Shown here in pieces: positions 2,304 through 54,501 of a stretch of DNA of 64,000 bases. This DNA is from a bacterium. Lineage in GTDB: Bacteria > SAR324 > XYD2-FULL-50-16 > G965216635. Below the pieces are notes generated by a model. It had not been told where the DNA came from. It saw only the letters and a program-made list of their open reading frames with translations, and did not search any database. The stretch's first letter is position 1; each line of letters begins with the position of its first letter. The stretch lies in contig OZ244188.1 in the NCBI GenBank assembly GCA_965216635.1, positions 136,001-200,000 of the forward strand, read 5' to 3'. The position numbers and the translations under genes are program-made.

Positions 2304-2398
2304 TATAGACCTTTGAATTTGTTTGTCTAGTTTAGCCAATAAGCTTATCAATATAGACCTTTGAATTTGCTTGTCTAGTTTAGCCAACAAGTCTATAT
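2304..2398. mobile_element. Two tandem mini-copies of the MITE-like element (5' end TATAGACCTTTGAATTTG, internal CTAGTTTAGCC palindrome half, second copy ends AAGTCTATA)
   Basis: Direct sequence comparison with other copies at 29446, 44027, 59556. Confidence 0.6.
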
Positions 2399-2414: not shown

Positions 2415-4697
2415 CTAGCGGCAAATAGCACTAAAAACCTCTACAGGCGTAGCAGGCGCATTCAGTTTGACTCTTTTATTTTTGGAAAAATAAGAAACTG
2501 CATCTTTGATTGCAAGCCAAACAGAATGAGCGAGCATCAAAGGAGGCTCTCCTACGGCTTTGGATTTAAAAATAGTATCTTCGGTATTAGAATAGGTTTT
2601 TAAATGAACTCTAAAGTCTTGCGGTAGATCGCTTACAGCTGGAATTTTGTAGGTATCAGGACCTGTCGCTAAAGCTCTACCATTTTCAGCCCACCCTAAT
2701 TCTTCACAAGTCAACCATCCCATACCCTGCACAAACCCTCCTTCTACTTGTCCTCTATCTACGGCTGGATTGATAGAATGCCCTATATCGTGCAAAATAT
2801 CTGTTCTTAAAACTTTGTATTCCCCCGTTAGAGCGTCTACTAAAACTTCAGATACCGAAGCTCCATAAGCAAAGTAGAAAAAAGGATGTCCCTTGTTGTT
2901 TTTTTTATCAAAATAAACTTTTGGTGTTTTGTAATAGCCCGTGCTAGATAGGGCTATTCTATTTTCATAAGCCAAAGCAATCAATTCTTCAAAAGTAATT
3001 TTTTTCTTTTTTTCTATCCAAACATTTCCTTGCTCAAAATGAATATTTTCTACTGGAGTTTTAAAATAAGCAGCTGCAAAGCGAATCAATCTTTCTTTTA
3101 TTTTTCTAGCTGCAATCTGAGCAGCCTTTCCATTTAAATCAGTTCCAGCAGAAGCAGCAGTAGGAGAAGTGTTAGGAACTTTATCGGTGCGGGTAGAAGT
3201 GATAGATATTTTATTTAAAGCAATTTGAAATTCTTCGGCTACAATTTGAGCTACTTTAATAAAAAGTCCTTGCCCCATTTCTGTGCCACCGTGATTGAGA
3301 TGCACACTGCCATCGCTATAGATATGAATCAAAGCCCCCGCTTGATTCATAAAGGTAACTGTGAAAGAAATACCAAACTTTACTGGAGAAATAGCGATCC
3401 CTTTTTTTAAAAAAGGGCTAGTTTGGTTAAATACAGCAACCTCTTGACGTCTTTTTTTATACTCCGAAGTTTGCACTAATTCTTCCACTAAACTAGAAAT
3501 TACTGGTTCCTCTATCTCCTGCTCGTAAGGAGTTATATTTCTACCATTTTTCTTTTCATAAAAATTGAGCCTCATAATATCTAAAGGATCTTTGTTTAGG
3601 TAACGTGCTATTTCATCTATAATATGCTCTATGTGGAGCATACCTTGAGGACCCCCAAATCCACGAAATGCAGTATTGGATACTGTATTTGTTTTACAAG
3701 GATAACCCTCTATTTTAACATTTTTGAAATAATAACAATTATCCGAATGCAACATAGCCCGATTTAAAATAGCTAAAGATAAATCCGCAGAATAACCACA
3801 TTGGGCGGCTAGTTTTATTTTAATAGCTTCAACCGCTCCCGCGTCATCAAATCCCACCTCGTAAGTATTATAAAAATTGTGTCTTTTGCCAGTAGTGATC
3901 ATATCGTCAAAACGGTTGAGTCTCATTTTCACTGGCAGCCGATTACGGTAAGCAAACAAGGCAGCAATACAAGCCGCTTGTGCAGCTTGAGTTTCTTTAC
4001 CCCCAAACCCTCCACCCATTCTTCTTGTATCTACTACTACTTGGGACATTTTTAGACCTAATACTTCGGCTACGAGTTTTTGAACTTCAGTAGGATTTTG
4101 AGTAGAGCAATAAAGAAAAATACCATCCTCCTGAGGCACAGCTAAAGAAATTTGTGTCTCTAAATAAAAATGATCCTGTCCTCCAATAAAAAGCTCCCCG
4201 CTCAAACGGTGTTTTGCTTTTTGCAAAGCAAGATTAGCGTTGCCCCGTTGTAGAGTTTGTGGCTCTAATACAAAAGATTTTTTCTGTAGTGCTTCTTTTA
4301 AATCCAAAATTGGCTCTAAAGGTTTATATTTTACTTTAATTTCTCGGACAGCCTTTCTTGCACTGTGCGTATCTTTAGCCGCCACTGCTACAATAGGCTG
4401 CCCGAAAAATTCTACTTTTTTATCTGCTAAAAGAGGGTCGCCATCAAACACTGGAGCAATATCTAATTTAGCTGGAACATCCTTCGCCTGCACAATATCT
4501 ACAACTCCTGCCATTTTTTGAGCTATAGAAATATCTACCTCTTGAATTTTAGCACAAGCCTGCTCACTACAAAAAAAACAGCAATGCAATGCCTCTGGAA
4601 AATCTAAAATATCATCTACATAAACAGCTTCACCGCTGACATGTTTTTCTGCACTATCGTGAGCGAATGGCTTTGTAATATAACTTAAATTTTTCAT
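2415..4697 (-). CDS. xdhB: Xanthine dehydrogenase, molybdopterin-binding subunit
   Basis: 760 aa; aldehyde oxidase/xanthine dehydrogenase a/b hammerhead and Mo-pterin binding regions (GFGGK, GQGL motifs). Confidence 0.85.
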   Translation of the reverse strand: MKNLSYITKPFAHDSAEKHVSGEAVYVDDILDFPEALHCCFFCSEQACAKIQEVDISIAQKMAGVVDIVQAKDVPAKLDIAPVFDGDPLLADKKVEFFGQPIVAVAAKDTHSARKAVREIKVKYKPLEPILDLKEALQKKSFVLEPQTLQRGNANLALQKAKHRLSGELFIGGQDHFYLETQISLAVPQEDGIFLYCSTQNPTEVQKLVAEVLGLKMSQVVVDTRRMGGGFGGKETQAAQAACIAALFAYRNRLPVKMRLNRFDDMITTGKRHNFYNTYEVGFDDAGAVEAIKIKLAAQCGYSADLSLAILNRAMLHSDNCYYFKNVKIEGYPCKTNTVSNTAFRGFGGPQGMLHIEHIIDEIARYLNKDPLDIMRLNFYEKKNGRNITPYEQEIEEPVISSLVEELVQTSEYKKRRQEVAVFNQTSPFLKKGIAISPVKFGISFTVTFMNQAGALIHIYSDGSVHLNHGGTEMGQGLFIKVAQIVAEEFQIALNKISITSTRTDKVPNTSPTAASAGTDLNGKAAQIAARKIKERLIRFAAAYFKTPVENIHFEQGNVWIEKKKKITFEELIALAYENRIALSSTGYYKTPKVYFDKKNNKGHPFFYFAYGASVSEVLVDALTGEYKVLRTDILHDIGHSINPAVDRGQVEGGFVQGMGWLTCEELGWAENGRALATGPDTYKIPAVSDLPQDFRVHLKTYSNTEDTIFKSKAVGEPPLMLAHSVWLAIKDAVSYFSKNKRVKLNAPATPVEVFSAICR

Positions 4698-4722: not shown

Positions 4723-4824
4723 TACCAGCTAACCTGTTTTTATGCTTCATTGATTTTACCAGCTAACCTATCTTTATGCTTCATTGATTTTGCCAGCTAA
4801 TCTGTTTTTATGCTTCATTGATTT
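4723..4824. repeat. 34-bp tandem direct repeat x3 (TTACCAGCTAACCTGTTTTTATGCTTCATTGATT); the last copy overlaps and encodes the res C-terminus (…LAGKINEA*)
   Basis: Seen directly in sequence; each unit carries the same mini reading frame MKHKNRLAGKINEA* on the minus strand. Confidence 0.7.
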
Positions 4825-7800
4825 TGCCAGCTAATCTATCAAAATCATCCAACCAATATTTTCTATACTCTTCTGGAGCAAGAGTAGTGTCTCTCGTTTT
4901 GAAAAACAACTGAGTTTTTATTGTAAAGCCGTGAGACAAATATTTTTTTGCTTGGTTTTTATTTTCAATTTTTTCTTCAAATAGATTTTTATAGCCATCA
5001 ATTTTTCTTATCACATCGGTATGCTCTGTGCCTTTGGGATCTAAAAAAAGAATGGTATAATTCTTCTCTTTTTGCATCCAAAAAATAAAATCAGGGAAAA
5101 AATGGGATATAGAATTTGTCTTTGGGTTATAGTAAGGAATATGAATACTATCTAAAGTTTCGTCTAGTTTAGAAAACATCCACCAATCATAATTTTTAAA
5201 AACACTGTTATCTTTTTGCAAATATTCTTCTAAATTTTCAATAAACTTTATTTCGCTCGGCACATCAATAATATGGTTTAAGTAATCTACTTTTTCTTGC
5301 TCTGCTACAATTAGAGGATGGTAGTAATGGTTGGCTAAATATTTTATTTTAATTTTTTGATTGTTGAGCTCAAAAGTTTTTGCCGATTCGAATTTTTCAA
5401 ATAAAGTGAGTTGTTCGTCGTAATCTTTTCTTTTTCCCGTTTTGAATAATTCTTCTAATTCTAATTCTTTTGCTGCACTAGATTTATTTAGTTTTTGATT
5501 TTTTATAATTTCCAGTTTCTCTTTTAATTCTTCAATTTTATTTCCATCTTTGAATTTTATTTCTTTAAAATGCACAATTTCTGCTTCTAGTTTTTTAAAC
5601 CCATCAACCTCTTGGTTTTGAATGCTGAAATAATCTAAGATACTTTTGAGGTGTAAATCTGGTTTATCAATATTTCTTGTCTCGTCAAAATTGTAATATT
5701 TGCTTTGATTCTGCATACTTTCTGACACTTTTTTTAAGACTTTTATCTCGCATTCGTTTTTTAGCAAAACGATTTTATCTCCTAAATGTTCAAATAGTTT
5801 TTGAGTTTGGGTAAGGTCTTTTTTACTAACCGAATACTTTAAAACAGTGCTGGATTCTGCCAATATTTTATTGGATTTTTGATAAACAGGTACGAGTAAC
5901 AAACGATTTTTAATTTTTTCGTTTATTGCAAATAAGTCTCCCAAATTATGTTCTGGCTTTTGCTGTTCTTCTTGGAGTTTTTCTATTATATTTTTTAAAT
6001 TTTCTGCGTTGGTTCCAAAAACAAACAGACTTTCTAAGGCTAAAATATTTTGTTTTATTTTATCAAACAGCTCTTGCTCTGCTTCTTCAGCGGCTATTAA
6101 GTTTTGCAATCTTTTTCTTTTATTTTTTAGAGGCTCTATCCGCAACCCACGCCCTACCGATTGCAAAACAAATTTTTTAGAATCTTTTGCCATTCCTATA
6201 TTTACAAATAAAATAAGATTGGGTCTATTAGAATCCCACCCTTCGTAAAAAGAACGCGAGCCCATCAAAATATTTATATCCGAATCGTCTTGGTTGATTT
6301 TTTTGAATATACTTTCATTTTCCAAACTTTCTATGATTTGATAATCTGCCACTGTGTCTTTTAACCAGCCAGAAATATCTCCAATTTTTATCAAAGCAAA
6401 AGGTTTCTCCGAAGTCTGTAGTTTGAAAGCAATCTCTTTTTTATTTTTTGGAACCTTTAAAATTTCAATTTTGCCGAAATTATTTGCATTGAATACAGCT
6501 TGCAGAATTTTCTTGTAGCTTATTTTTGAAAGTATATTGCTATCTATTTCTATTTTTGTATTTTCAAATAGATATTTATTATTGTCCGAAAATTCAGCAA
6601 GCAATTCAGTTTTAGCTTCTTCCAGTAAATTTGGTTTAATTTGGTTGTTAGCTATTTTTTCTAGTTCTGCAAAGAAAAGTTTTAAGTCTGGTTCTTTAAT
6701 AATTTTATCCAAATCAGATTTTTTTGTATTGACGGAATTAACCAGTGTCAAGAGCAAGGGGCGGTGATAAAGACTGCCATTTGTTTTTCTTATTTTTTTA
6801 AAATGCTTGTAGCTATAGGTTTGTAAAAGCAGAGTTTTTAAAACAATTTTTTGTTTTTCTATTTCGGAGAAGTTATCTTGTTCCTTAAAAGCAGTTACTT
6901 TCTGTTTTGAAACATAGATATGCTTGCCGTATCCAGCTCCTATAAATTTGGCGAGATTAAAATCAAAAACGCAGCTAGCGTAGTCTCTAGCATCGGTAAA
7001 AGTAGCAGAGAAATTAAACAAAAAACCGTTCCTTGAAAGAATAGAATAAAAAATCTGCCGTTTGCTTTCTTCTTTGTCTCCTTTGTGGGCTTCGTCTAAA
7101 AGAATATACCATTTCCCAAAGTTATCGTAATTTTTAAAATTCACAATGTTTTGCTTGTGTTCATCAGAAATTAAATCAGAGCGGTAATAAAAAATAGTTA
7201 TCTCTTTTTTGGAATAGGGCAGAGCATTTTCGTGTTTTACGCTCTCGTATTCTTTCAAACTTTTTAAGAGGATCTTGGTCTCAAAATTATCTCTATTAAA
7301 CTCTGCTATATGCTCTTTGAACTGTTGTAAAAGATCTTCTCGGTGCGCCAAAAACAAAATATCGTTTTTAGGAATTTCTCCTTTTCTTATCAGCTCTCCT
7401 AAAAGATGAATAAGTTTTACAATCACAAGCGTTTTACCAGAGCCAGTTGCCATCCAAAAACTCATCCGATTGATAAAAGAAGCGAAAGAGATTTTGTCGC
7501 CTGAAACTGAGTATTCCTCACTGTATTCCAAAAGATATTTAGTCGTTTTGTTTTCTTTGCTTTTCTTTTTGCTGCCTTTTTGATTCAAGGTATAATCAAA
7601 ATTTTCATCGTAGTTATTGTTGCGGTATTTTTGAAAAAAATTATTTTTTCTAGTCTGGTAGTCTTTGTGATTTTCGCTGTAAAACAAGTGCAGTCCTTTC
7701 AGTGAATTTTCTAGTGCTTCTTTTTGAAAATCGTAAAGTCTTTTTTTTTGAGAAAAACTTTTTAAATCAAAATTTTGCCATTCTGCTGGCAAGTTGGCAA

Positions 7801-7849
7801 AAGAAATTTTTTTAACTATTTCCTGTAGATAATGCTCCATTATTCCCAC
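4808..7849 (-). CDS. res: Type III restriction endonuclease, Res subunit (SF2 helicase-nuclease)
   Basis: Walker A ATGSGKT, DEAH-box-like LLDEAHKG, 1013 aa, 10-nt overlap with upstream mod gene. Confidence 0.85.
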   Translation of the reverse strand: MGIMEHYLQEIVKKISFANLPAEWQNFDLKSFSQKKRLYDFQKEALENSLKGLHLFYSENHKDYQTRKNNFFQKYRNNNYDENFDYTLNQKGSKKKSKENKTTKYLLEYSEEYSVSGDKISFASFINRMSFWMATGSGKTLVIVKLIHLLGELIRKGEIPKNDILFLAHREDLLQQFKEHIAEFNRDNFETKILLKSLKEYESVKHENALPYSKKEITIFYYRSDLISDEHKQNIVNFKNYDNFGKWYILLDEAHKGDKEESKRQIFYSILSRNGFLFNFSATFTDARDYASCVFDFNLAKFIGAGYGKHIYVSKQKVTAFKEQDNFSEIEKQKIVLKTLLLQTYSYKHFKKIRKTNGSLYHRPLLLTLVNSVNTKKSDLDKIIKEPDLKLFFAELEKIANNQIKPNLLEEAKTELLAEFSDNNKYLFENTKIEIDSNILSKISYKKILQAVFNANNFGKIEILKVPKNKKEIAFKLQTSEKPFALIKIGDISGWLKDTVADYQIIESLENESIFKKINQDDSDINILMGSRSFYEGWDSNRPNLILFVNIGMAKDSKKFVLQSVGRGLRIEPLKNKRKRLQNLIAAEEAEQELFDKIKQNILALESLFVFGTNAENLKNIIEKLQEEQQKPEHNLGDLFAINEKIKNRLLLVPVYQKSNKILAESSTVLKYSVSKKDLTQTQKLFEHLGDKIVLLKNECEIKVLKKVSESMQNQSKYYNFDETRNIDKPDLHLKSILDYFSIQNQEVDGFKKLEAEIVHFKEIKFKDGNKIEELKEKLEIIKNQKLNKSSAAKELELEELFKTGKRKDYDEQLTLFEKFESAKTFELNNQKIKIKYLANHYYHPLIVAEQEKVDYLNHIIDVPSEIKFIENLEEYLQKDNSVFKNYDWWMFSKLDETLDSIHIPYYNPKTNSISHFFPDFIFWMQKEKNYTILFLDPKGTEHTDVIRKIDGYKNLFEEKIENKNQAKKYLSHGFTIKTQLFFKTRDTTLAPEEYRKYWLDDFDRLAGKINEA

Positions 7850-10308
7850 CAGATTAAAGGTTTAATTTTTTTGTAGTCTAGCTCTTTTGTGTTTTCTTTG
7901 CTTCCGTCTGTAAACAAAACTTCGTCTTCAGTGATCATTTTGATCCATTTGCCGTTTAGGCAAGATAGGGTTTCTGCTATATCAACATTGGGATAAAGTT
8001 TTTTTAAGTCTACAGTCGCTTTGTTTTTTTGGTAGTCAATTTCTAAACATTTTAGCATTTTTTCGTCCTTCATAAAAACATAGTCTTGGTAGGCTTTGTC
8101 ACTCGTTTGGTTAAATAAATTTGCATCGCCGTATTTTGTGTTTTCCAAAGTTTCTTCGTACTGCTCTAGCTCGTAGTACTTGAAAAACCCGCCTCCTTTG
8201 TAGTCTTTGGTATCCTTTGAAATACCGCTTTTATCGTAGGCTAAAACTTCTTTCATTCTCGGTAAAACTACGCTATAAAAATGCTCTCCCATTTCTACAC
8301 CGAGCCATTTTCTGCCGAGTTTATGTGCCACCGCTGTTGTAGTGCCAGAGCCGAGGAAATAGTCAAAAATTAAATCTTTTTCTTTTGAGCCTGTATTGAT
8401 TACTCTGGCTAATAATTTTTCTGAGTTTTCTGTTGTAAAACCCCAAGTTGAAGAATAGCCTACCCAATCAGTCCAATTATCTGTTAATTTTTGTGTTTCG
8501 GTTTCTTCTATTTGTGGTGTTTTATTATCTCCATTACTCCATTTTATTTTATTTTCTTTTTCTAACTCAAATATAAATTTTTGATTCAAAGCCCAATGTC
8601 TACCGTCTGGAGGCAATAACTCTGTATTAAGAATTATACGCGCCCTTGTTGTTGCTTTCCCATTTCTTTTTTCAGACTGGGCTCTTATATTTTTTTTTGA
8701 AAAAAGTTTGATATATTCATCAGGTATAGGAGACCATCTAATACCTGGTAAGTGCATAGCTCTCCATTTTGGATTATCTCTTTTTTTTGTAGCTGTAGAA
8801 AAAACAAATTGATTAGACTTTGAATAGAAAAAAAGAGAATCATGTCCACTATGATATTTATTAATTTGCTCTGTTAACTTTGCCGATTTACTAATAATAA
8901 TTTCATTTTGGTAGTTAAATATTTTATCCAACAAACACCTCACAATCCAGTTTCCGTGATAATCGCAGCGCACAAAAATACTTCCGCTATTATGCAAAAC
9001 TTCTTTGGCAAGTTTTAAGCGGTTTTCAAGGAGTGTAGCCCAGCTAGAATCCTTGTATTTGACTAGATAGTCGTAGTCTGCGTTGTTTTCTAAATTAAAA
9101 GGGGGGTCAATATAAATCGTTTGTATTTTTTCTTTGAATTTAGGCAGGATAGTATTGAGTGCTTGGTAGTTTTCACTTTTTATCAGCCAGCCGTCTAGTT
9201 GCTTATCCAAATCGTCAAATAAGCCTAAAATTTCTAGCTCCAAATCTTTAAAGTGTTTGGTATCTATAGGCAAATGCTTGTGTTTTTTGGTTAAACTATT
9301 GCCGTTTAAATCTGTTTCAAAAATAGTTTCTATCTTAAAATCACTCTCTACAATTCCGAGTTCTTGCCATTCTTGGATCTGCTCTTTTATTCCTCCGTGT
9401 TTGAGTATTTTTTGTAGCAGAATTTTATCTGCGATTCTATCTAGCGTCAAAACATAATTGCTATTTTTGGCAAACTTCGGTTTGTTCCAAATCTTGACTA
9501 GCTCGTTTTCAAACTGAGCGACAAAATCAATGATCTTAAAAGCAATGTTTTTCAGTATTTGTAATTGGTTTATTCTTATCGCAGACCATTCTTTAGCCCC
9601 TTCCCAAAGATATTGATAGCTCCAGAGTTTAAACTGCTCTTCCAAAAAAGCCTTAGCGTTTTTGTTAATGAAAAAATCTACCTCTGCTTGTCTATTGAAA
9701 ATACGAAAAGCTTTTTCTAATTCTTCTTCCTTGATAAAAACTCCTGCTTTTTTTATGGCTCTTAAGATATCTTCTGTTTTTGTTTTTGTACCATTATCGG
9801 AGTGAAGCGCAGCAAAGCAAATTGTTCTATCTTCCTTTACTTCCTTAAACTCAAAAACAAGAGATTTTTTCTCGTTCGCTTTTTTAGGTTTAATATTTTC
9901 TGCGTCAAAATAGAATTTGAAAACATCAAATTCTACGAGCGTGCTTCTAAAAATCCTATCGCTTTTGACATAGTAAAGCATCTGAGTTTTCCAAAACAAA
10001 ACTACATCTTTTTCGTCTGTATAGACCTTTTCATAAATGTTGTTATGAAAGGGAGTAGAGTTAAAATAGATAGAACCGCTTTCGCTAAAATAACGACTAA
10101 AAAAAGAATGGAGTTTGTCAAAAAGCTCCTCTCTAAAATTGGAATGTTCTTTTAGAGCTTTATAAATATCTTGTTTTAGCAAAATTTCTATCTGCTCGTA
10201 ATATTTTGATTTTATTTGCATCAAATTGATAAAACCACCTTTGCCGTCAATTTTTGCACCGATAAATATATCTTGCAGTGCTTGAAAAAATTTTTGTTCT
10301 TTCGTCAT
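7840..10308 (-). CDS. mod: Type III restriction-modification system Mod subunit (N6-adenine DNA methyltransferase)
   Basis: DPPF motif (IYIDPPFN) and downstream SAM-binding region (FDYFLGSGTT); 822 aa; operonic with res. Confidence 0.85.
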   Translation of the reverse strand: MTKEQKFFQALQDIFIGAKIDGKGGFINLMQIKSKYYEQIEILLKQDIYKALKEHSNFREELFDKLHSFFSRYFSESGSIYFNSTPFHNNIYEKVYTDEKDVVLFWKTQMLYYVKSDRIFRSTLVEFDVFKFYFDAENIKPKKANEKKSLVFEFKEVKEDRTICFAALHSDNGTKTKTEDILRAIKKAGVFIKEEELEKAFRIFNRQAEVDFFINKNAKAFLEEQFKLWSYQYLWEGAKEWSAIRINQLQILKNIAFKIIDFVAQFENELVKIWNKPKFAKNSNYVLTLDRIADKILLQKILKHGGIKEQIQEWQELGIVESDFKIETIFETDLNGNSLTKKHKHLPIDTKHFKDLELEILGLFDDLDKQLDGWLIKSENYQALNTILPKFKEKIQTIYIDPPFNLENNADYDYLVKYKDSSWATLLENRLKLAKEVLHNSGSIFVRCDYHGNWIVRCLLDKIFNYQNEIIISKSAKLTEQINKYHSGHDSLFFYSKSNQFVFSTATKKRDNPKWRAMHLPGIRWSPIPDEYIKLFSKKNIRAQSEKRNGKATTRARIILNTELLPPDGRHWALNQKFIFELEKENKIKWSNGDNKTPQIEETETQKLTDNWTDWVGYSSTWGFTTENSEKLLARVINTGSKEKDLIFDYFLGSGTTTAVAHKLGRKWLGVEMGEHFYSVVLPRMKEVLAYDKSGISKDTKDYKGGGFFKYYELEQYEETLENTKYGDANLFNQTSDKAYQDYVFMKDEKMLKCLEIDYQKNKATVDLKKLYPNVDIAETLSCLNGKWIKMITEDEVLFTDGSKENTKELDYKKIKPLIWWE

Positions 10309-10312: not shown

Positions 10313-11812
10313 TTAAAATTCAGTAACTCTAGTTTTCACCTTAGTTTTTCCCTGCTCTGTTGTTTCCAAATAAAATTTATAAAGTAGATTTTGAGATACA
10401 GCACTGCGGTATTCTTTCGTTGCTCTCAAATCGCTAATAGGAGAGTAGTCTTTTTGCAAAGTTTTCATTGTAGCCATTATTGTCTCTTCTTCCCATAGTT
10501 TGCCTAGCAAAGCCTGTTCGGTTTTATAAGCTCTTTTGGGGAAGGCAGACATACCTGAAAAAGCGATGGCTATTTTTTGAATGCTGTTAGCATCATCTAG
10601 TTCAAGTTGGAAAGCTCCGCAAAGTGCAGATATATCATCGTCTATTCTTTTGGATATTTTGTAAATTCTAAAATACTGTTTTTCTGTGGGTTTTGGAATT
10701 TGAATCTGTTCTATAAACTCCCCTTTTTTCAGGGCTGTTTTTCTGTAGTCAAGAAAAAAATCTGTAGCTAGAATCACTCTAGTTTTTGCTGCGTGCCCAG
10801 TAGATACTTGGCAAGCTTGCCTTAAAACAAAACGCGCCCCCCAAACCAATAGAGCTGGTGGAGTGTCGGCTACTGCTGAAGCGTTGGCGAGGTTGCCGCC
10901 AATACTAGCTTGATTTCTAATTTGTGGAGAAGCAAATCTTGTCAACAGCAAGGCAAAGTCGGGGTAATATTTTTCAAAAATAAAAAAAAGTTTAGCAAGT
11001 GGCACAGCAGATCCTAAATGGAGTTCGGTTTTTGTTTCCTTGATAATATTTAATTCTGCCACTCTGTGTAAATCAATAATGGCATAAAATCTCTGATGCC
11101 TCTGGGTGATTGCTAGAGATAAATCCGTTCCTCCACAGCTAAGTTTGGCATCTGGATTTTGTAGTAGAAGGTGAATGAAATTTTTTAAGTTTGTAGGAAG
11201 ATAGTAATTTTTTATAAGAGTATCTCCGCCTAGCGCTGTTTTGGCTGGAGATTCTTTAAGGCTATGCAGTAGTTTTAAAGTTTTTTTCTCCTCGCACGGG
11301 TGGGCATCTGCTGGTGTATCTGCTGGTGTATCTATTGGGGCTTGAAGAGCAGCATCTATAATTGCTCTGTAACCAGTGCAGCGGCAAAGATTCCCAGTCA
11401 AACCTTCCAAGACCTGTTCACGAGTAGGTTTTATGTGGTTTTGAAACAGCGCAAATAAAGACATCACAAAACCAGGTGTGCAAAAACCACATTGGGAGCC
11501 GTGATAATCTACCAAAGCTTGTTGCACAGGGTGTAACCCTTTTTTATCTTTTAAACCCTCTACTGTTATCAACTGATTGCCTTCTAAATTGCCCAGCAAG
11601 GCTATGCAAGAGTTAATCGTCCGATATTTTAGTTTTGTATATTTAGAATCTGGCTCTGCGAGAACTACAGTGCAGGCTCCACAATCACCACTAGCGCAAC
11701 CTTCTTTAGTGCCACAAAAACCCTCTTTTCGTAAATACTCCAAAATCGTTGTATTGGCGTTTTCTTCTTGGATAGTGCGGATTTCATTTTTGTTAAGTAG
11801 GAATTGGAGCAT
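10313..11812 (-). CDS. xdhA: Xanthine dehydrogenase small subunit (2Fe-2S ferredoxin + FAD-binding domains). True start probably MLQFLLNK at 11812; the ORF-track N-terminal extension to 11908 is likely spurious
   Basis: Two [2Fe-2S] cysteine clusters (CGxGxCGAC…, CGFCTPG, CRCTGY) followed by a CO-dehydrogenase flavoprotein-like FAD domain. Confidence 0.85.
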   Translation of the reverse strand: MLQFLLNKNEIRTIQEENANTTILEYLRKEGFCGTKEGCASGDCGACTVVLAEPDSKYTKLKYRTINSCIALLGNLEGNQLITVEGLKDKKGLHPVQQALVDYHGSQCGFCTPGFVMSLFALFQNHIKPTREQVLEGLTGNLCRCTGYRAIIDAALQAPIDTPADTPADAHPCEEKKTLKLLHSLKESPAKTALGGDTLIKNYYLPTNLKNFIHLLLQNPDAKLSCGGTDLSLAITQRHQRFYAIIDLHRVAELNIIKETKTELHLGSAVPLAKLFFIFEKYYPDFALLLTRFASPQIRNQASIGGNLANASAVADTPPALLVWGARFVLRQACQVSTGHAAKTRVILATDFFLDYRKTALKKGEFIEQIQIPKPTEKQYFRIYKISKRIDDDISALCGAFQLELDDANSIQKIAIAFSGMSAFPKRAYKTEQALLGKLWEEETIMATMKTLQKDYSPISDLRATKEYRSAVSQNLLYKFYLETTEQGKTKVKTRVTEF

Positions 11813-11953
11813 AATAAAAAGTATAATTATTGTTTTTATTAAAAACACCCTAATAAACCAAAGCCTACTAATAGTAAAATAGATAATCAAGAAAAAAAAC
11901 GCTGGCAATACCTATTTGATGATTTTAAGAGCTCTTATCCTTTTAATGGATGA

Positions 11954-12040
11954 TTTTTATTTTTTTGGGGCGCGTCAGTCCAGTTAGCAGTTGGTGGGTT
12001 GGTTGTGACTATATTGCAACTTTTAAAAACTGCGAGTTAA
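11954..12040 (+). pseudogene. 3' remnant of a Bdr-like gene (encodes FLFFWGASVQLAVGGLVVTILQLLKTAS*) directly upstream of the OMP array
   Basis: Manual translation; matches the C-terminal TM cassette of the Bdr-like paralogs (…LLFWGVSVQLAVGGLVVTILQFLQN). Confidence 0.6.
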
Positions 12041-12237
12041 AATTTTTTTTTGCTTTTCGTGAAAACAAAAAAAACACAAAGCTCTCACTAAAAATAAACC
12101 CTTGCATTAAGTTATATTTTGGCTAAACTAGGAAAATGTTAAAAAAAAATAAAGAATTATTTTTTTTTGTTTGCTTTTAATTTTTTTTCAGTTATATTTC
12201 TATTTTTACCTTCTTCTAACCTTTATTAAATATTATT

Positions 12238-15009: not shown

Positions 15010-16353
15010 ATGCAAGAAGTAACAAAAAGGGCGTTAAAAACACCTCTTAAAAATTGTGAGACAAAAGTAGCTCAGGCTGGTTTTCAATGGGCTAACCAAT
15101 GGGCTAATCAACGGGCTGGTTTTCAATGGGCTAATCAACGGGCTGGATTCCAATGGAATGGCGTTGTATTGCTAGGTGCGGTTTTGTTGAGTTTGCTATT
15201 TGTAGGTAATCTGCAAGCACAGAGCCCCAATGGAAACACAAAACAGGGATTTTTCGCGGGTATTGTTTATCTACAAGGATTCGGAGTAGATACCACAAAA
15301 ACTAGCACAAGCTCTGCTACTGGCTATGAAATCACTGGCTATTCAAATGACGAAACTAGAATAGACGCAACCTCTGGATTGTCTTATTGGGATACCCCAG
15401 CGGGGACGACAGCCGGAATTGGAGCTAGAGCTTTAATAGCGGCAAACTGTGAACGTGATGCAACAAATACTACATATCTAGGTGAAAATTATTATCTTCC
15501 AAGAAATTTCTATTTCTTCGATTCTTTTGATCCTGGTGCGAAACAGTCTTTAGCTGATATTAATAGTTCAATGAATGATGCTACTGTTACTTTTAATGAC
15601 GACACTATTTCTAGTAGAATCTTTCGTTCAGGATTGGTAGCTGGAGAAACATCCTATTGTAAAACTTACTTTGATAGCCTTCCCCAAATTAATTTTTCTG
15701 CCTATGATGTAACTCCAGATTCGCCTTCAAAACCCCCCGTCACCAGCACAGAGAGCAACGCACTCAACGGTGTTGGTCTGCAATTCGGCTGGCGAGGAGA
15801 AAAATGGAGAGCCTCCTTGACTCACTTTACTGGCAAAGGTGGAGCTAACGAGCTCGTCAATACAGTGGTGATGGCGGAGTATTTTTTTCACGAGGAGTTT
15901 TTTGTAGGAGGCGGTCTAGCGAGTATGAAGCTTACCAATGGCTCTACTAGCGCCTCGGCTACTAGTCCCGTGATCACGGTAGGCTATAAGGAGAACTTAA
16001 CTCCCAACCTATTCTTTAATATTAGCTTGACAAAGTATATCTCGGGTATTTCTCTGAGCCGTTCTACTAGTCCTACAGCTACTAACAAAACTTTTACCCG
16101 CACACAGACTGAACGCGGTAAAGATAGTCATAAAGCAACGATTGGTAGCAGAATCACAGTTCCTGCTAATCGGCAAAGCGGGGTAGGCGCTATTTTTCAA
16201 CAAGCAGCAGGTCCTGATAATAGAATAGAAGTAACCCAATTCCGCAGCAGAGATGTGGAAATAGAAGAAGTCACAACTCCAGCAACGCAGAAGATAGAAG
16301 CTGAAATCAAAGCCCCCGTAGTCGTCAGCATTTCCCTGCTGTGGCGCTTTTAA
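15010..16353 (+). CDS. Paralogous outer-membrane beta-barrel protein, copy 3 (mixed GFQWA/NQWA/NQRA repeats)
   Basis: As copy 1. Confidence 0.6.
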   Translation: MQEVTKRALKTPLKNCETKVAQAGFQWANQWANQRAGFQWANQRAGFQWNGVVLLGAVLLSLLFVGNLQAQSPNGNTKQGFFAGIVYLQGFGVDTTKTSTSSATGYEITGYSNDETRIDATSGLSYWDTPAGTTAGIGARALIAANCERDATNTTYLGENYYLPRNFYFFDSFDPGAKQSLADINSSMNDATVTFNDDTISSRIFRSGLVAGETSYCKTYFDSLPQINFSAYDVTPDSPSKPPVTSTESNALNGVGLQFGWRGEKWRASLTHFTGKGGANELVNTVVMAEYFFHEEFFVGGGLASMKLTNGSTSASATSPVITVGYKENLTPNLFFNISLTKYISGISLSRSTSPTATNKTFTRTQTERGKDSHKATIGSRITVPANRQSGVGAIFQQAAGPDNRIEVTQFRSRDVEIEEVTTPATQKIEAEIKAPVVVSISLLWRF

Positions 16354-16383
16354 TAGAGTTGTGTAGGCACCGAATCACCTAAA

Positions 16384-16521
16384 CTTTTGAATTTGCATTC
16401 TGTTTAGCCTATGCAGCGTTAAAAAAAAATTTTAACTCTTGAAATATTACATATATTCCTGCGAGCTAAAATTTTTTTTTGCCTTGCCTAGCCGTCACAT
16501 AACGCAAATTCAAAGGTCTAT
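16384..16521. mobile_element. MITE-like element inserted in the loop of the post-OMP3 hairpin (GGCACCGAATCACCTAAAC | element | ACCTAAACTCGGTGCC), with an apparent 8-bp duplication ACCTAAAC
   Basis: The uninterrupted version of the same hairpin exists on the other strand near 57005-57035; element body is >90% identical to the 59556-59699 copy. Confidence 0.65.
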
Positions 16522-16805
16522 TACCTAAACTCGGTGCCATTCAAAAAACCACCTCCCCGCCAAACCGCATCCCCTCCAAAAACACCTAAAAAAACAAAAT
16601 TGCAGGGACATTTTTTTTGCTTTTCGTGAAAACAAAAAAAACACAAAGCTCTCACTAAAAATAAACCCTTGCATTAAGTTATATTTTGGCTAAACTAGGA
16701 AAATTTTAAAAAAAGATAAAAAGTTATGTTTTTTTTGTTTGCTTTTAATTTTTTTTCAGTTATATTTCTATTTTTACCTTCTTCTAACCTTTATTAAATA
16801 TTATT

Positions 16806-18089
16806 ATGCAAGAAGTAACAAAAAGGGCGTTAAATAGCTCTCTTAAAAATTGTGAGACAAAAGTAGCTCAGGCTGGTTTTCAATGGGCTAATCAACGGGC
16901 TGGATTCCAATGGAATGGCGTTGTATTGCTAGGTGCGGTTTTGTTGAGTTTGCTATTTGTAGGTAATCTGAAAGCACAAACCCAAAATGGTTCCAATGGA
17001 AGCACAAAACAGGGATTTTTCGCTGGTATTGTCTATCTACAAGGATTCGGAGTAGATACCACAAAAAGCAGCACAAACTCTGCTACTGGCTATAGAATCA
17101 AATATTCAAACGATATTACTGGAATAGACGCAACAGGTGGGAATCATACGTTGAGCCCTTTACTTTTACTAACTAGCATCAGAGCTTTATTCAAAGAAAA
17201 CTGTGAAGAAGGAACAACGAATTTTACACAAACGGGTGGACAAGCAAATTCAAATGGAAATTACTATTTTACCAGGGATTACTTCGTATCTTTTAATGAG
17301 ATTAAGGATGCTACTGTAATAGAATTTGTAGACCCTATTGCTCGAACTAGATTTAACAATGGAAAAGTGGTAACTCATGACTCCTATTGTCGCAGGTACT
17401 TTTACGGTGATCTTTCCTCCACTAGAACCCCTATTAATCTTCCTGATCCTGATGTGACTGCAGATTCGCTTTCAAAACCCCCCGTCACCAGCACAGAGAG
17501 CGATGCACTCAACGGTATCGGTCTGCAAGTCGGCTGGCGAGGGGAAAAATGGAGAGCCTCTCTGACTCACTTCACTGGCAAAGGTGGAGCTAACGAGCTC
17601 GCCAATACAGTGGTAATGGCGGATTATTTTTTTCACGAGAAATTTTTTGCAGGAGGCGGTCTAGCGAGTATGAAGCTTACCAATGGTTCAACTAGCGCCT
17701 CGGCTACTAGCCCCGTGGTTCAAGTAGGCTATAAGGAAAACTTAACTCCCAACCTATTCTTTAATATTAGCTTGACAAAGTATATCTCGGGTATTTCTCT
17801 GAGCCGTTCTACTAATCCAGCTCCGATTCCCACTGGCGCCCCTCTTATTAGAAAAACACAGACTAAAGATGGTGATACAGTATTCATTGGAGGAACAGTT
17901 ACTAGAATTGACAGGTCGAATCAATATAACTCCTTATTTAGCAGTGTGTTAGATTCCAGAATAGAAGTAACCCAAGTCCGCAGCCGAGATGTGGAAATAC
18001 AACAAGTCACAACTCCAGCAGCGCAGAAGATAGAAGCCGAAATCAAAGCCCCCGTAGTCGTCAGCATTTCCCTGCTTTGGCGCTTTTAA
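16806..18089 (+). CDS. Paralogous outer-membrane beta-barrel protein, copy 4
   Basis: As copy 1; shares about 270-bp upstream region with copy 1. Confidence 0.6.
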   Translation: MQEVTKRALNSSLKNCETKVAQAGFQWANQRAGFQWNGVVLLGAVLLSLLFVGNLKAQTQNGSNGSTKQGFFAGIVYLQGFGVDTTKSSTNSATGYRIKYSNDITGIDATGGNHTLSPLLLLTSIRALFKENCEEGTTNFTQTGGQANSNGNYYFTRDYFVSFNEIKDATVIEFVDPIARTRFNNGKVVTHDSYCRRYFYGDLSSTRTPINLPDPDVTADSLSKPPVTSTESDALNGIGLQVGWRGEKWRASLTHFTGKGGANELANTVVMADYFFHEKFFAGGGLASMKLTNGSTSASATSPVVQVGYKENLTPNLFFNISLTKYISGISLSRSTNPAPIPTGAPLIRKTQTKDGDTVFIGGTVTRIDRSNQYNSLFSSVLDSRIEVTQVRSRDVEIQQVTTPAAQKIEAEIKAPVVVSISLLWRF

Positions 18090-18396
18090 CAGAAAAAAAC
18101 CTACAATGGATGTTGCAAAGCATAACATGTAGAGACGCCCTACACGGGCGTCTTATATGATGTGCATAAACCACAAAAAAAACTATTTTAATAAAAGTTC
18201 TGAATTTATGAGACGCTCGTATAGAGCGTCTCTACAGACCTACATAAAATAAAAAATAACGCCCCGCATTTCCCCAAACATCTTCTTAAGAACGGGGACA
18301 CATTTTTACCCAAAATGGTTGAATAAGCAAAAAATAACGTTCCCGCAAAAACACCTAAAAAACAAAATTGCAGTGGGCATTTTTTTAATTTTGCCC

Positions 18397-18500: not shown

Positions 18501-19022
18501 ATGTTAAGAACAACTACCGCACAAAAATTTACTTCTACTAAAATCTACGATCTTTTGATTGGACTAGGTGCAGAAAAAAAGAGCGCAGAGATTGCTATTG
18601 GAGAGTTTGTAGAACTGGTCCCAAAAGCTTTGGCTTCTAGTACAACAGAAACTGGTTTGGATACCACTCTTCCTACGGACAAAGGGGATATCTGGAGATT
18701 AGAATCCATCATTTCAGACAACAAAAGCGATACAGACATAAAACTGAAAGAAATTGAGAAGGAAATAGTAAAAATCAAAAGCAACCTAAAAGAAACTATA
18801 GCAAAAACCAAAAGCGACCTAAAAGAAACTATAGCAAAAATCGAAAGCAACTTAAAAGAAACTATAGCAAAAAACAAAAGCGATACCGATTTAAAAATAG
18901 AAATGATGAGAACAGAAGCAGAAAAAAACAAAAACGCTCTATTGATTATAGGAATTTCAACACAGCTAGCAGTTGGTGGGCTGGTTGTGGCTGTATTACA
19001 GCTTTTAAAAGTTTTGACTTAA
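18501..19022 (+). CDS. Bdr-like / DUF1640-like small coiled-coil membrane protein (173 aa; C-terminal cassette …LQLLKVLT)
   Basis: Conserved N-domain MLRTTTAQKFTSTKIYDLLIGLGAEKK…, 11-aa (33-bp) tandem repeats KSDLKETIAKx, C-terminal TM helix; architecture parallels Borrelia Bdr proteins. Confidence 0.55.
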   Translation: MLRTTTAQKFTSTKIYDLLIGLGAEKKSAEIAIGEFVELVPKALASSTTETGLDTTLPTDKGDIWRLESIISDNKSDTDIKLKEIEKEIVKIKSNLKETIAKTKSDLKETIAKIESNLKETIAKNKSDTDLKIEMMRTEAEKNKNALLIIGISTQLAVGGLVVAVLQLLKVLT

Positions 19023-19110
19023 TAAAGTAGCAGAAAAGTTTAGCTTATCTGCAAAATGTATTTTGGCGAGGGGATATTTTTTGGGGGCATTGACTTTAAA
19101 AGGAGAATTT

Positions 19111-19180
19111 GCCAAAATAAGTTTGCCAAAATAAGTTTGCCAAAATAAGTTTGCCAAAATAAGTTTGCCAAAATAAGTTT
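19111..19180. repeat. 14-bp tandem repeat GCCAAAATAAGTTT x5 in the promoter region of the second Bdr-like transcription unit (downstream of TTGACT at 19090)
   Basis: Seen directly; the same repeat is present in 2 copies at 20439-20466 upstream of the next unit. Confidence 0.8.
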
Positions 19181-19251
19181 GATTGCTATGATCTTTTTAG
19201 GTAGAATTTATAAAAATAAAACAACCAGCTATAAAAACCTTTAAAAATAAA

Positions 19252-19788
19252 ATGTTAAGAACAACTACAGCACAAAAATTTACTTCTACTAAAATCTACG
19301 ATCTTTTGATTGGACTAGGTGCAGAAAAAAAGAGCGCAGAGATTGCTATTGGAGAGTTTGTAGAACTGGTCCCAAAAGCTTTGGCTTCTAGTACAACAGA
19401 AAATGGTTTGGATGTCACTCTTCCTACGGACAAAGGGGATATCTGGAGATTGGAATCCATCATTTCAGACAACAAGAACGATACAGACAGAATAATAACA
19501 GAGAACAGAAACGACCTAGAAAGAATAATAACAGACAATAAAAATGATACAGACCTAAAACTGAAAGATATTGAGAGTAAAATCGTAAAAACCAAAAGCG
19601 ACTTGATAAGAATAATAACAGACAATAAAAATGATACAGACCTGAAATTTAAGGATATAGATTTAAAAATAGAAAGGATGAGAACAGAAGTAGAAAAAAA
19701 CAAAAACGCTCTATTGATTATAGGAATTTCAACACAGCTAGCAGTTGGTGGGCTGGTTGTGGCTATTTTACAATTTTTACAAAACTAA
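19252..19788 (+). CDS. Bdr-like small coiled-coil membrane protein (178 aa; C-terminal cassette …AILQFLQN)
   Basis: Paralog family as above. Confidence 0.55.
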   Translation: MLRTTTAQKFTSTKIYDLLIGLGAEKKSAEIAIGEFVELVPKALASSTTENGLDVTLPTDKGDIWRLESIISDNKNDTDRIITENRNDLERIITDNKNDTDLKLKDIESKIVKTKSDLIRIITDNKNDTDLKFKDIDLKIERMRTEVEKNKNALLIIGISTQLAVGGLVVAILQFLQN

Positions 19789-19795
19789 AAATAAA

Positions 19796-20350
19796 ATGTT
19801 AAGAACAGCTACGACACAAAAATTTACTTCTACCAAAATCTACGATCTTTTGATTGGACTAGGTGCAGAAAAAAAGAAAGCAGAGATTGCTATTGGAGAG
19901 TTTGTAGAACTGAGACCAAAAGCTTTGGCTTCTAGTACAACAGAAACGGGTTTGGATACCACTCTTCCTACGGACAAAGGGGATATCTGGAGATTGGAAT
20001 CTATCATTTCAGAGAACAAGAACGATACAGATATAAAACTGAAAGATATTGAGAGTAAAATCGTAGAAACCAAAAGCGACCTAGAAAAAACTATAGCAAA
20101 AACCAAAAGCGACCTAGAAAAAACTATAGCAAAAATCGAAAGCAACCTAAAAGAAACTATAGCAAAAATCGAAAGCAACTTAAAAGAAACTATAGCAAAA
20201 AATAAAAGCGATACCGATTTAAAAATAGAAATGATGAGAACAGAAGTAGAAAAAAACAAAAACGCTTTATTGATTATAGGAATTTCAACACAGCTAGCAG
20301 TTGGTGGGCTGGTTGTGGCTGCATTACAGCTTTTAAAAGTTTTGACTTAA
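19796..20350 (+). CDS. Bdr-like small coiled-coil membrane protein (184 aa from MLRTATTQ; ORF-track start 19745 is an extension into the upstream gene). Separated by only 7 bp from the upstream paralog
   Basis: Paralog family as above. Confidence 0.55.
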   Translation: MLRTATTQKFTSTKIYDLLIGLGAEKKKAEIAIGEFVELRPKALASSTTETGLDTTLPTDKGDIWRLESIISENKNDTDIKLKDIESKIVETKSDLEKTIAKTKSDLEKTIAKIESNLKETIAKIESNLKETIAKNKSDTDLKIEMMRTEVEKNKNALLIIGISTQLAVGGLVVAALQLLKVLT

Positions 20351-20438
20351 TAAAGTAGCAGAAAAGTTTAGCTTATCTGCAAAATGTATTTTGGTGAGGG
20401 GATATTTTTTTGGGGCATTGACTTTAAAAGGAGAATTT

Positions 20439-20466
20439 GCCAAAATAAGTTTGCCAAAATAAGTTT
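20439..20466. repeat. 14-bp tandem repeat GCCAAAATAAGTTT x2 (same promoter context as 19111-19180)
   Basis: Seen directly. Confidence 0.8.
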
Positions 20467-20536
20467 GATTGCTATGATGTTTTTAGTAGAATTTATAAAA
20501 ATAAAACAACCAAAATAAAAACTTTTAAAAAATAAA

Positions 20537-21106
20537 ATGTTAAGAACAACTACAGCACAAAACTTTACTTCTACTAAAATCTACGATCTTTTGATTGGAC
20601 TAGGTGCAGAAAAAAAGAAAGCAGAGATTGCTATTGGAGAGTTTGTAGAACTGAGACCAAAAGCTTTGGCTTCTAGTACAACAGAAACTGGTTTGGATGT
20701 CACTCTTCCTACGGACAAAGGGGATATCTGGAGATTGGAATCTATCATTTCAGAGAACAAGAACGATACAGATATAAAACTGAAAGATATTGAGAGTAAA
20801 ATCGTAGAAACCAAAAGTAACCTAGAAAAAATAATAACAGAAAACAGAAACGACCTAGAAAAAATAATAACAAAAAACAGAAACGACCTAGAAAAAATAA
20901 TAACAGACAACAGAAACGACCTAGAAAGAATAATAACAGACAATAAAAATGATACAGACCTGAAATTTAAGGATATAGATTTAAAAATAGAAAGGATGAG
21001 AACAGAAGTAGAAAAAAACAAAAACGCTCTGTTATTCTGGGGTGTGACAGCCCAGCTGACTATTGGTGGGTTGGTTGTGACTATACTACAATTTTTACAA
21101 AACTAA
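20537..21106 (+). CDS. Bdr-like small coiled-coil membrane protein (189 aa; C-terminal cassette …LLFWGVTAQLTIGGLVVTILQFLQN)
   Basis: Paralog family as above. Confidence 0.55.
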   Translation: MLRTTTAQNFTSTKIYDLLIGLGAEKKKAEIAIGEFVELRPKALASSTTETGLDVTLPTDKGDIWRLESIISENKNDTDIKLKDIESKIVETKSNLEKIITENRNDLEKIITKNRNDLEKIITDNRNDLERIITDNKNDTDLKFKDIDLKIERMRTEVEKNKNALLFWGVTAQLTIGGLVVTILQFLQN

Positions 21107-21113
21107 AAATAAA

Positions 21114-21617
21114 ATGTTAAGAACAACTACAGCACAAAACTTTACTTCTACTAAAATCTACGATCTTTTGATTGGACTAGGTGCGGAAAAAAAGAAAGCA
21201 GAGATTGCTATTGGAGAGTTTGTAGAACTGAGACCAAAAGCTTTGGCTTCTAGTGCAGCAAAAACGGGTTTGGATACCACTCTTCCTACGGACAAAGGGG
21301 ATATCTGGAGATTGGAATCTATCATTTCAGAGAACAAGAACGATACAGATATAAAACTGAAAGATATTGAGAGTAAAATCGTAGAAACCAAAAGTAACCT
21401 AGAAAGAATAATAACAGACAACAGAAACGATCTAGAAAGAATAATAACAGACAATAAAAATGATACAGACCTGAAATTTAAGGATATAGATTTAAAAATA
21501 GAAAGGATGAGAACAGAAGTAGAAAAAAACAAAAACGCTCTATTGATTATAGGAATTTCAACACAGCTAGCAGTTGGTGGGCTGGTTGTGACTATACTAC
21601 AATTTTTACAAAACTAG
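21114..21617 (+). CDS. Bdr-like small coiled-coil membrane protein (167 aa)
   Basis: Paralog family as above. Confidence 0.55.
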   Translation: MLRTTTAQNFTSTKIYDLLIGLGAEKKKAEIAIGEFVELRPKALASSAAKTGLDTTLPTDKGDIWRLESIISENKNDTDIKLKDIESKIVETKSNLERIITDNRNDLERIITDNKNDTDLKFKDIDLKIERMRTEVEKNKNALLIIGISTQLAVGGLVVTILQFLQN

Positions 21618-22065
21618 AGACCTTTATTAGCGTTCTGTTTAGCCTATGCAGCGTTGAAAAATTTTTTTAACTCTTGAAATATCACACATATTCCAGCGAG
21701 CTAAAAAAATTTTTCGCCTTGCCTAGCCGTCACATAACACTAATACAAAACTCTCACTAAAAATAGGACCTTTATTAGCGTTCTGTTTAGCCAAAACAAG
21801 CTTATTGCTTGAAACTATTTATGGGCTATAGAAAAAGTGCCTTTTGGCACTTTTTCATTTCTTTTTTGGAGTATGCAAAGTTTGTAGTGCCCTGATCCCA
21901 TTATTGTGGCACTACGCCATTGAAAAATTTTTTTAACTCTTGAAATATCACACATATTCCAGCGAGCTAAAAAAATTTTTCGCACCTGTTCTAACCATTT
22001 GGCTAGCCGTCTTAAGAACAACTACAGCACAAACTCTCACTAAAAATAAGACCTTTGCGGGATTT
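21615..22065. mobile_element. Cluster of degenerate/partial MITE-like copies (two internal segments …AACTCTTGAAATATCACACATATTCCAGCGAGCTAAAAAAATTTTTCGC…), interleaved with a fragment of a Bdr-like gene start (CTTAAGAACAACTACAGCACAAA at about 22012-22034)
   Basis: Direct comparison with the full copies at 16384 and 59556 and with the Bdr-like 5' ends (ATGTTAAGAACAACTACAGCACAAAA). Confidence 0.5.
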
Positions 22066-29445: not shown

Positions 29446-29612
29446 TATAGACTTTTGAATTTGCGTTCTGTTTAGCCTATACATCGTTAAAAAAAATTGT
29501 CCCTTGAAATACTTGAGTATTGCTGCGAGCCAAATTTTTTTCGCACCTGTTCTAACCATTTGGCTAGCCTTCGCAGCTGGTTTTGTCCTATTTGGTAAAT
29601 TCAAAGGTCTAT
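29446..29612. mobile_element. Full-length MITE-like element (167 bp) with inverted termini TATAGACTTTTGAATTTG … AAATTCAAAGGTCTAT
   Basis: Terminal inverted repeats seen directly; related to copies at 16384, 59556, 61841. Confidence 0.7.
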
Positions 29613-53451: not shown

Positions 53452-53458
53452 TTTATTT

Positions 53459-53962: not shown

Positions 53963-53969
53963 TTTATTT

Positions 53970-54494: not shown

Positions 54495-54501
54495 TTTATT
54501 T

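Follow-up and report, generated by a model that had tools for sequence, protein, structure and literature searches.

The locus and its gene neighborhood

The locus described here lies immediately downstream of a gene for a putative outer-membrane beta-barrel surface protein (paralogue copy 3) within a 64-kb stretch of bacterial DNA, referred to below as the window; the coordinates of all features are collected in Table 1. The copy 3 protein has no Pfam family and is accompanied by ~50 paralogues on a single contig of 2,394,643 bp. In an AlphaFold model (pLDDT 78) it is beta-rich, and the structure matches of this model, all of them to outer-membrane barrels, are weak; on this modeling the "OMP" label used in the preliminary description of the window appears plausible.

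Read directly on the plus strand, the sequence that follows the copy 3 gene has the order GGCACCGAATC-ACCTAAAC-138 bp-ACCTAAAC-TCGGTGCC, in which the two copies of the octamer flank an AT-rich insert of 138 bp (16385-16522). The octamer repeat can be extended to 11 bp with one mismatch, ATcACCTAAAC (16374-16384) against ATtACCTAAAC (16520-16530), with a period of 146 bp. A MITE-like element inserted into the loop of a hairpin had previously been proposed at this site; the strings read as described and the insertion is confirmed by the filled and empty sites compared below, the element coordinates given at that time (16384-16521) being one base too low. Between the hairpin and the next surface-protein gene lies a block of 210 positions (16596-16805) that is conserved upstream of other paralogues, including the region upstream of copy 5 (96% identity over 126 bp). 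This block had been termed a "promoter module". Its conservation holds (94% to the region upstream of copy 1), no sigma-70 consensus was found in 16200-16900, and the label, which derives from conservation, is unproven. The blocks upstream of paralogues 1 and 4 (12026-12237 and 16596-16805) also contain MITE-derived pieces: GCGAGTTAAAATTTTTTT (12032-12049) matches the centre-right part of the element, and ACAAAGCTCTCACTAAAAATAAACCCTT (12077-12105 and 16644-16672) corresponds to the junction of tandem F-type copies at 21741-21775 and 22030-22060.

Several other features of the neighborhood were recorded. Two tandem arrays of paralogous ORFs of ~170-190 aa, with weak coiled-coil Pfam matches, occupy 18501-21617 and 52873-56803; a good sigma-70-like promoter lies ahead of each (TTGACT-17-TAAAAT in one case, 56879-56851, minus strand), and long antisense shadow ORFs are present in every copy of these arrays. 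Between the xdhA (10313-11908) and xdhB (2415-4697) genes lie two ORFs (4808-10308), one of 1013 aa and the other of 822 aa and carrying a DNA methyltransferase domain, which probably represent a restriction-modification system inserted in the xanthine dehydrogenase operon. At 35672-38285, a small ATP-dependent DNA ligase (281 aa, DNA_ligase_OB_2) adjoins a GmrSD-type restriction endonuclease, and a solo end of the element family (copy J) is found just downstream of the ligase gene. No Shine-Dalgarno-like purine tract was seen at the inspected starts, such as 12238, 44095, 48651 and 59747, which may be a trait of the lineage.

Table 1. Features of the insertion site, of its empty counterparts and of the element family (window coordinates unless a contig is named).
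Feature	Position	Strand	Remarks
Surface-protein paralogue copy 3 (putative outer-membrane beta-barrel)	15010-16353	+	ORF; stop codon 12 nt 5' of the hairpin
Host hairpin, left arm GGCACCGA	16366-16373	+	followed by ATC; pairs with 16531-16538 in the predicted fold
Left 5-bp target duplication, family register	16375-16379	+	TCACC
Left copy of perfect 8-bp direct repeat ACCTAAAC	16377-16384	+	duplication proposed in the preliminary description
Copy A, family register	16380-16520	+	TAAAC...GTCTA, 141 bp; 89.6% identity to copy B over 144 columns
Copy A, left terminal inverted repeat TAAACTTTTGAATTTGCATT	16380-16399	+	canonical form TAGACTTTTGAATTTGCGTT
Copy A, centre	16421-16480	+	A9 run, apical hairpin, T9 run; resembles a bidirectional terminator with a weak stem
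Copy A, right terminal inverted repeat AACGCAAATTCAAAGGTCTA	16501-16520	+	from the comparison of termini
Right 5-bp target duplication, family register	16521-16525	+	TTACC, one C>T difference
Right copy of perfect 8-bp direct repeat ACCTAAAC	16523-16530	+	single copy at the empty site
Host hairpin, right arm TCGGTGCC	16531-16538	+	pairs with the left arm in the predicted fold
C-rich, G-poor tract (C 26, G 6)	16539-16615	+	3' of the hairpin; counterpart also after the empty hairpin
Conserved block	16596-16805	+	5' of paralogue copy 4 (16806-18089); 94.4% identity to 12026-12237
Paralogous empty site, hairpin GGCACCGAAT-CACCTAA-ATTCGGTGCC	56979-57005	-	downstream of the paralogue at 57088-58344; octamer present once
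Second hairpin of the same stem type, also empty	57034-57076	-	23-nt loop; different from the hairpin at 57005-56979
Copy B	59558-59698	+	141 bp, full length; perfect TTTTA duplication; at the centre of the AT palindrome TTAAATA-TTT-TATTTAA
Copy C	29448-29611	+	164 bp, chimeric right half; perfect TCCTA duplication
Copy D	44029-44087	+	minimal, 59 bp, two ends only; perfect TAATA duplication
Copy I	2306-2395	+	90 bp, doubled left end; perfect TATTA duplication
Copy F	21615-21755	+	variant ends GAGACCTTTATTAGCG; composite of F and F2 (21615-22038) also in a relative
Copy F2	21766-22038	+	interrupted by a ~130-bp insert
Copy H	52704-52775	+	left end and part of the core, truncated
Copy J	35256-35293	+	solo end
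"E"	61843-62140	+	left end and right end, unpaired, no matching duplications; encloses a homologue of the native spacer of L007 (8950-9030)
Core copies in the closer relative	L004 1479-1612; L009 3436-3568; L011 4785-4918 and 11080-11213; L012 8231-8355; L015 1912-2045		not all independent (see text)

The empty counterpart of the insertion site

An uninterrupted form of the same hairpin is present downstream of surface-protein paralogue 5. Its existence had been noted before, with the position 57005-57035, which has to be corrected to 57005-56979 on the minus strand. Global alignment of the filled and empty sites, as suggested in the preliminary description, demonstrates homology on both sides of the insertion: the final ~110 nt of the two surface-protein genes are ~93% identical, 18 of 18 nt match to the left of the insertion (from GGCACCG to CCTAAA), and 38 of the 42 nt past the right repeat are the same, including the tract CAAAAAACCACCTCCCC. 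Since the empty site carries a single octamer between homologous flanks, the duplication is real and does not represent a chance repeat. The empty site used in this comparison is a paralogue of the filled one, not an allele, and the comparison demonstrates insertion under either of the duplication registers considered below.

A family of short fold-back elements

Searches with blastn using the copies as queries identified the insert at this locus (copy A) as a member of a family of fold-back MITEs with ~10 copies or fragments in the window, ranging in size from 59 to 164 bp. The 14-nt terminal motif TTTGAATTTGCRTT alone occurs 8 times in the window, with 0.32 occurrences expected by chance. 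The canonical ends of the family are TAGACYTTTGAATTTG...GTCTA, and the termini TAGACYTTTGAATTTGCGTT and AACGCAAATTCAAARGTCTA, which pair in the predicted folds, were recognized on 14 ends. The left and right ends designated "E" probably do not form one element, judging from their sequences, because their flanking duplications do not match and because they enclose sequence that in a relative belongs to the native spacer.

The element has no coding capacity, the longest internal ORF being 29 aa. No Rfam family was matched by the element at the gathering threshold, the sole match at threshold being a tRNA; when E-values were used instead, the best match was a generic miRNA-precursor hairpin with 29.8 bits against a threshold of 211. 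No transposase was detected among the 30 window ORFs scanned. Scans of public DNA with the element yielded 3 matches in genome contigs and 2 in metagenome contigs, all due to chance and located inside coding sequence, and no matches in viral contigs or plasmids.

The earlier view of a non-coding, repeated element with terminal inverted repeats is thus borne out, at ~10 loci in the window. Its mobility is likewise supported by more than one filled and empty pair: in addition to copy A, empty counterparts were found for copies B and D in the orthologous spacers of relatives (60 vs 219 bp for B and 27 vs 214 bp for D). Small size, terminal inverted repeats, target duplication, the absence of coding sequence and dispersal of copies at non-homologous sites are all features by which MITEs are recognized. 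We consider it likely that copy A is a full-length, ~141-bp copy of a non-autonomous fold-back transposon (MITE) with the ends TAGACYTTTGAATTTGCGTT...AACGCAAATTCAAARGTCTA.

Length of the target duplication

The perfect repeat of ACCTAAAC had been taken for an 8-bp target duplication. The repeat itself is beyond question, and its length as a duplication is put in doubt by the sister copies B, C, D and I, in which the flanking repeats are 5 bp long, identical at 5 of 5 positions and of the form T-N-N-T-A, a pentamer that occurs at 3.1% of window positions. For copy A, the flanks match at 4 of 5 positions in the family register or at 8 of 8 in the shifted one, and an 8-bp register applied across the family gives only 6 of 8 matches in A, C and D. 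In the family register, copy A is 141 bp long, exactly the length of copy B.

Under this register, the left end of copy A has to be accepted as an altered terminus. Thirteen of the 14 termini start with TAGA(C/T)YTTTGAATTT, and the sole exception is the left end of copy A, which reads TAAAC. The termini of H and "E" each carry a transition as well, which indicates that terminal decay is common, and where copy A alone departs from the family consensus, the change is a G>A or C>T transition, the same type as both junction changes. The perfect octamer would then probably be composed of 3 bp of true duplication (ACC) and of the 5 bp TAAAC, a left terminus that by analogy with the sister copies mimics the native bases of the loop. 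Two weaknesses of the 5-bp register are that two point changes are needed within 15 junction bases, for which we estimate P ~0.08 at the ~3% private divergence of copy A, and that the target TCACC lacks the TA that closes the duplication at the other four sites. The 5-bp duplication is equally readable as a 3-bp duplication with ATAGAC ends. Duplication of TA was considered and rejected, as the right flanks after GTCTA read TT, TT and TC in copies A, B and C.

In the competing register, the element would span 16385-16522 (138 bp) between true 8-bp duplications of ACCTAAAC, and copy A would be a 5'-truncated copy without TAGAC that arose by aberrant or different transposition. We regard this as unlikely, even though it requires no point mutations at all and accounts directly for an octamer that is identical at 8 of 8 positions on both sides and occurs once at the empty site. 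It would leave the left end of copy A as the only one of 14 termini without TAGA(C/T), set this copy apart from four sister copies with exact 5-bp duplications, and leave unexplained the TT that separates GTCTA from the repeat; the missing terminus would have to be imitated, at 4 of its 5 positions, by the final five bases of the target (~1.7% by base composition, an estimate), the equality of 138+8 with the 141+5 of copy B would be a coincidence, and both intact ends are normally required by a transposase. On the ten copies compared here, the 5-bp register is therefore probably the correct one.

Predicted folds, hairpin function and choice of target

The empty host hairpin is predicted to fold with -18.3 kcal/mol (z -5.9). 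In the filled locus, the predicted fold of 16355-16545 reaches -53.5 kcal/mol (z -7.0), with the GGCACCGA/TCGGTGCC stem closing around the element. Copy A on its own folds back over its whole length (-39.1 kcal/mol on the plus strand and -52.1 kcal/mol on the minus strand), and the corresponding values are -50.7 kcal/mol (z -8.9) for copy B and -21.7 kcal/mol for the minimal copy D.

The host hairpin had been described as terminator-like. The stable GC-rich stem is there, and the features of an intrinsic terminator are not: no U-tract follows the stem, CCTCAAAAAACC coming next, and consensus scans for intrinsic terminators found none at either the filled or the empty locus, so that "terminator" is an unproven label for this hairpin. 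The tracts downstream of the filled hairpin (C:G 26/6 over 16539-16615) and of the empty one (22/5 over 56978-56905, minus strand) are C-rich and G-poor, a composition compatible with Rho-type termination. Together with a tract at the end of a small-ORF array (52872-52776, minus strand, C:G 35:6), these 3'-end tracts resemble Rho-utilisation sites; the GC content of the genome is 34.5%.

Hairpins occur after paralogues 3, 4 and 5 and are missing from the 106-107-bp spacers between paralogues 1-2 and 2-3. Those after paralogue 4 are GC-rich and of different sequence, at 18128-18150 (GAGACGCC...GGCGTCT) and 18210-18236 (GAGACGCTC...GAGCGTCTC), and have no U-tracts. One of the three GGCACCGA-type hairpins in the window is filled and two are empty, and the other members of the family reside in unrelated AT-rich spacers; the proposal that such hairpins form an insertion hot-spot is thus not upheld. 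A broader preference for the centres of palindromes is suggestive at most. When the empty sites are reconstructed, those of A, B and I each have a palindrome at their centre, with stem lengths of 8, 7 and 5 bp, and those of C and D are not palindromic; tested against every intergenic position in the window, the five sites give a combined p of ~0.03 (Fisher, n=5), a weak hint. Tolerance of a palindromic insert within a hairpin is an equally good explanation as targeting of hairpins.

A conserved core in related genomes

The nearest named PheT homologues are only ~40% identical to the PheT protein encoded in the window, and closer genomes are represented by contigs. The syntenic NCBI contig L007 (GCA_014238815.1) encodes a PheT 78% identical to that of the window and a CfpA_C-domain protein 87% identical to the product of the last window ORF, a relationship that points to a spirochaete-like lineage. 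The elements are all missing from this contig, where the spacer that corresponds to the copy B site measures 60 bp against 219 bp in the window. In L007 (4557-6486), pta and the DHDPS gene are adjacent; in the window (52704-58344), ~5.9 kb lie between them, comprising the element remnant H, seven coiled-coil ORFs of ~170 aa (52873-56803, minus strand) and surface-protein paralogue 5.

The core of the element is present in another, closer relative (PheT 85% identical; ENA ERZ26869290). Several homologous surface-protein genes of this relative have a core that starts 2 nt past their stop codon (TAA CC AAATTAGCGTT...) and is always co-oriented with the gene. Behind it comes another, interrupted copy, which gives the same composite as F and F2; two further paralogues (L010) lack the core. 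The copies listed in Table 1 are not all independent, as several of the contigs L009-L014 are mirror-image duplications on opposite strands, typical of fold-back chimeras. The outer ends TAGACYTTTGAATTTG have no match in 98 kb of this relative.

The core is 86-92% identical between the window organism and the relative, as similar as the copies within the window are to each other (88-92%). Housekeeping genes of the same two organisms are 82-86% identical, with 65-74% identity at third codon positions. The potential to fold back is retained by double changes at 8 of the 45 predicted pairs, with no one-sided changes, and three of these eight are mere shifts of the boundary between the A-run and the T-run. 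Covariation in the core amounts to 0.117, compared with 0.038 in shuffles, none of 500 of which scored as high, and with 0.013-0.060 in slid controls. The combination of a conserved interior and variable ends is opposite to what is usual for MITEs and, on the sequences compared here, hints at a function beyond mobility, although the conservation could result either from selection on the hairpin or from recent lateral spread.

It may accordingly be asked whether the fold-back core is primarily a selected module at the 3' ends of surface-protein cassettes, serving as a terminator in both directions, as a hairpin for RNA stability or RNase III or as an anchor for recombination, with mobility being secondary. 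The cross-species identity of the core in excess of that at third codon positions, the pair-preserving double changes with covariation above shuffles, and the layout of an A9 run, a hairpin and a T9 run would all agree with such a role, as would the position of most core-bearing copies, by our count, downstream of and co-oriented with a gene. This interpretation is nevertheless doubtful: the scan for terminator consensus was negative and the apical stem is weak, part of the double changes reduces to the run-boundary shifts, copy B is located between divergent genes, a core-bearing copy lies downstream of only 1 of the 6 window paralogues, and high copy number combined with lateral spread between co-resident relatives would also produce high identity.

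The arrangement in the relative also bears on the order of events. If the palindromic module were native to the 3' flank of the gene family, as its position 2 nt past the stop codon of several paralogues in the orientation of copy A might suggest, the filled state would be ancestral and the "empty" hairpin would be the product of a palindrome-stimulated, precise deletion between the direct repeats. Slipped-strand deletion between repeats that surround palindromes is known from the precise excision of Tn5 and Tn10, and a 141-bp palindrome flanked by 11-bp direct repeats is a classic target of this process. Such a history is nonetheless quite improbable, given that the outer ends of copy A are specific to the window and recur in copies at unrelated loci with duplications of their own, that these ends are missing from the 98 kb of the relative, and that the gene ends of the relative lack a GGCACCGA hairpin. 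The flanking direct repeats would still imply a past insertion, so that the order of events would change and the nature of the element would not. Insertion of copy A into a previously uninterrupted hairpin remains our preferred reading.

Comparison with known mobile elements

Bacterial MITEs are non-autonomous deletion derivatives of insertion sequences. For the family described here, no parent insertion sequence was found among the window ORFs or in the scans of public DNA. MITEs are abundant in some genomes of Spirochaetes (PMC11602168), and the window family resembles bacterial MITEs such as those of that census in its small size, terminal inverted repeats, short duplications, lack of coding sequence, intergenic location, multiple copies and size variants with common ends. 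It differs from them in that the whole element folds back, and not only its termini, and in that the inner palindrome is conserved across species above the ends.

Three other groups of elements were considered and rejected. The Correia elements (CREE) of Neisseria are fold-back repeats of ~100-150 bp that start with TATAG..., are found near surface-protein genes, form long RNA hairpins and duplicate TA. The window family shares with them the fold-back size, the TATAG start and the dispersal near surface-protein genes. A Correia or IS630-type assignment fails, as TA is not duplicated on the right side in copies A, B and C, exact repeats of 5 bp are present instead, and there is no similarity beyond TATAG. 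REPINs, which are linked to RAYT (Y1) transposases, are likewise intergenic repeats with a long, imperfect hairpin of ~100 bp; they make no target duplication, whereas four copies here have exact 5-bp ones, and the scanned ORFs of the window include no RAYT or Y1 gene.

Insertion sequences of five families are known to insert inside REP hairpins (PMC1525189). The REP/BIME-targeting elements IS1397, ISKpn1, ISPpu9/10 and ISRm22 (PMC1525189) offer a parallel to copy A, a mobile element in an extragenic GC-rich palindrome near the 3' end of a gene, flanked by its broken halves. In contrast to their systematic insertion into hairpins, one of ~10 copies is found in such a site here and two sister hairpins are empty; moreover, those elements are autonomous, unlike the family of copy A. 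Membership among REP-targeting elements was rejected, as only copy A lies in a GGCACCGA hairpin and the targets of C and D are non-palindromic.

Proposed origin and significance

The following scenario may be proposed for the locus. A DDE-type transposase, encoded elsewhere in the genome and not in the window, would have moved copy A in trans into the loop of a GC-rich stem-loop that starts 12 nt past the stop codon of paralogue 3. By analogy with the four sister copies, a staggered cut would have duplicated 5 bp, TCACC, now seen as TCACC/TTACC, and the left terminus of the copy would subsequently have decayed from TAGAC to TAAAC by a G>A change, which happens to make it equal to the next five bases of the target. 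The near-perfect palindrome of the element would allow the host stem to close around the insert, giving a single long coaxial hairpin (-53.5 kcal/mol as predicted). Judging from this modeled fold, any 3'-end function of the host hairpin probably survived, and this would account for the tolerance of the insertion.

The insertion itself is of an ordinary kind; the unusual point is the conservation of the inner part in a related species. The locus provides a textbook pair of filled and empty sites, which demonstrates that this MITE family has been mobile in the genome and that long palindromic inserts are tolerated inside hairpins at gene ends. The ends TAGACYTTTGAATTTG together with the 5-bp T-N-N-T-A duplication supply markers for a census of the family, and the natural pair of filled and empty hairpins could be used to study read-through between tandem surface-protein genes. 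The most interesting lead appears to be the inner palindrome attached to the stop codons of homologous genes in the relative, with a conservation above that of silent sites. It is conceivable, as a tentative and rather unlikely extension of these comparisons, that the ~110-nt core is a selected 3'-end module of the surface-protein family in at least two species, serving in termination, as a hairpin for RNA processing or as an anchor of homology in the exchange of cassettes, and that it acquired transposon ends in this genome and now spreads as a mobile regulatory or recombination module. If selection does explain the conservation of the core, the element would represent a connection between mobile DNA and the way in which a large family of variable surface proteins is expressed or recombined, in a spirochaete-like lineage of which little is known.
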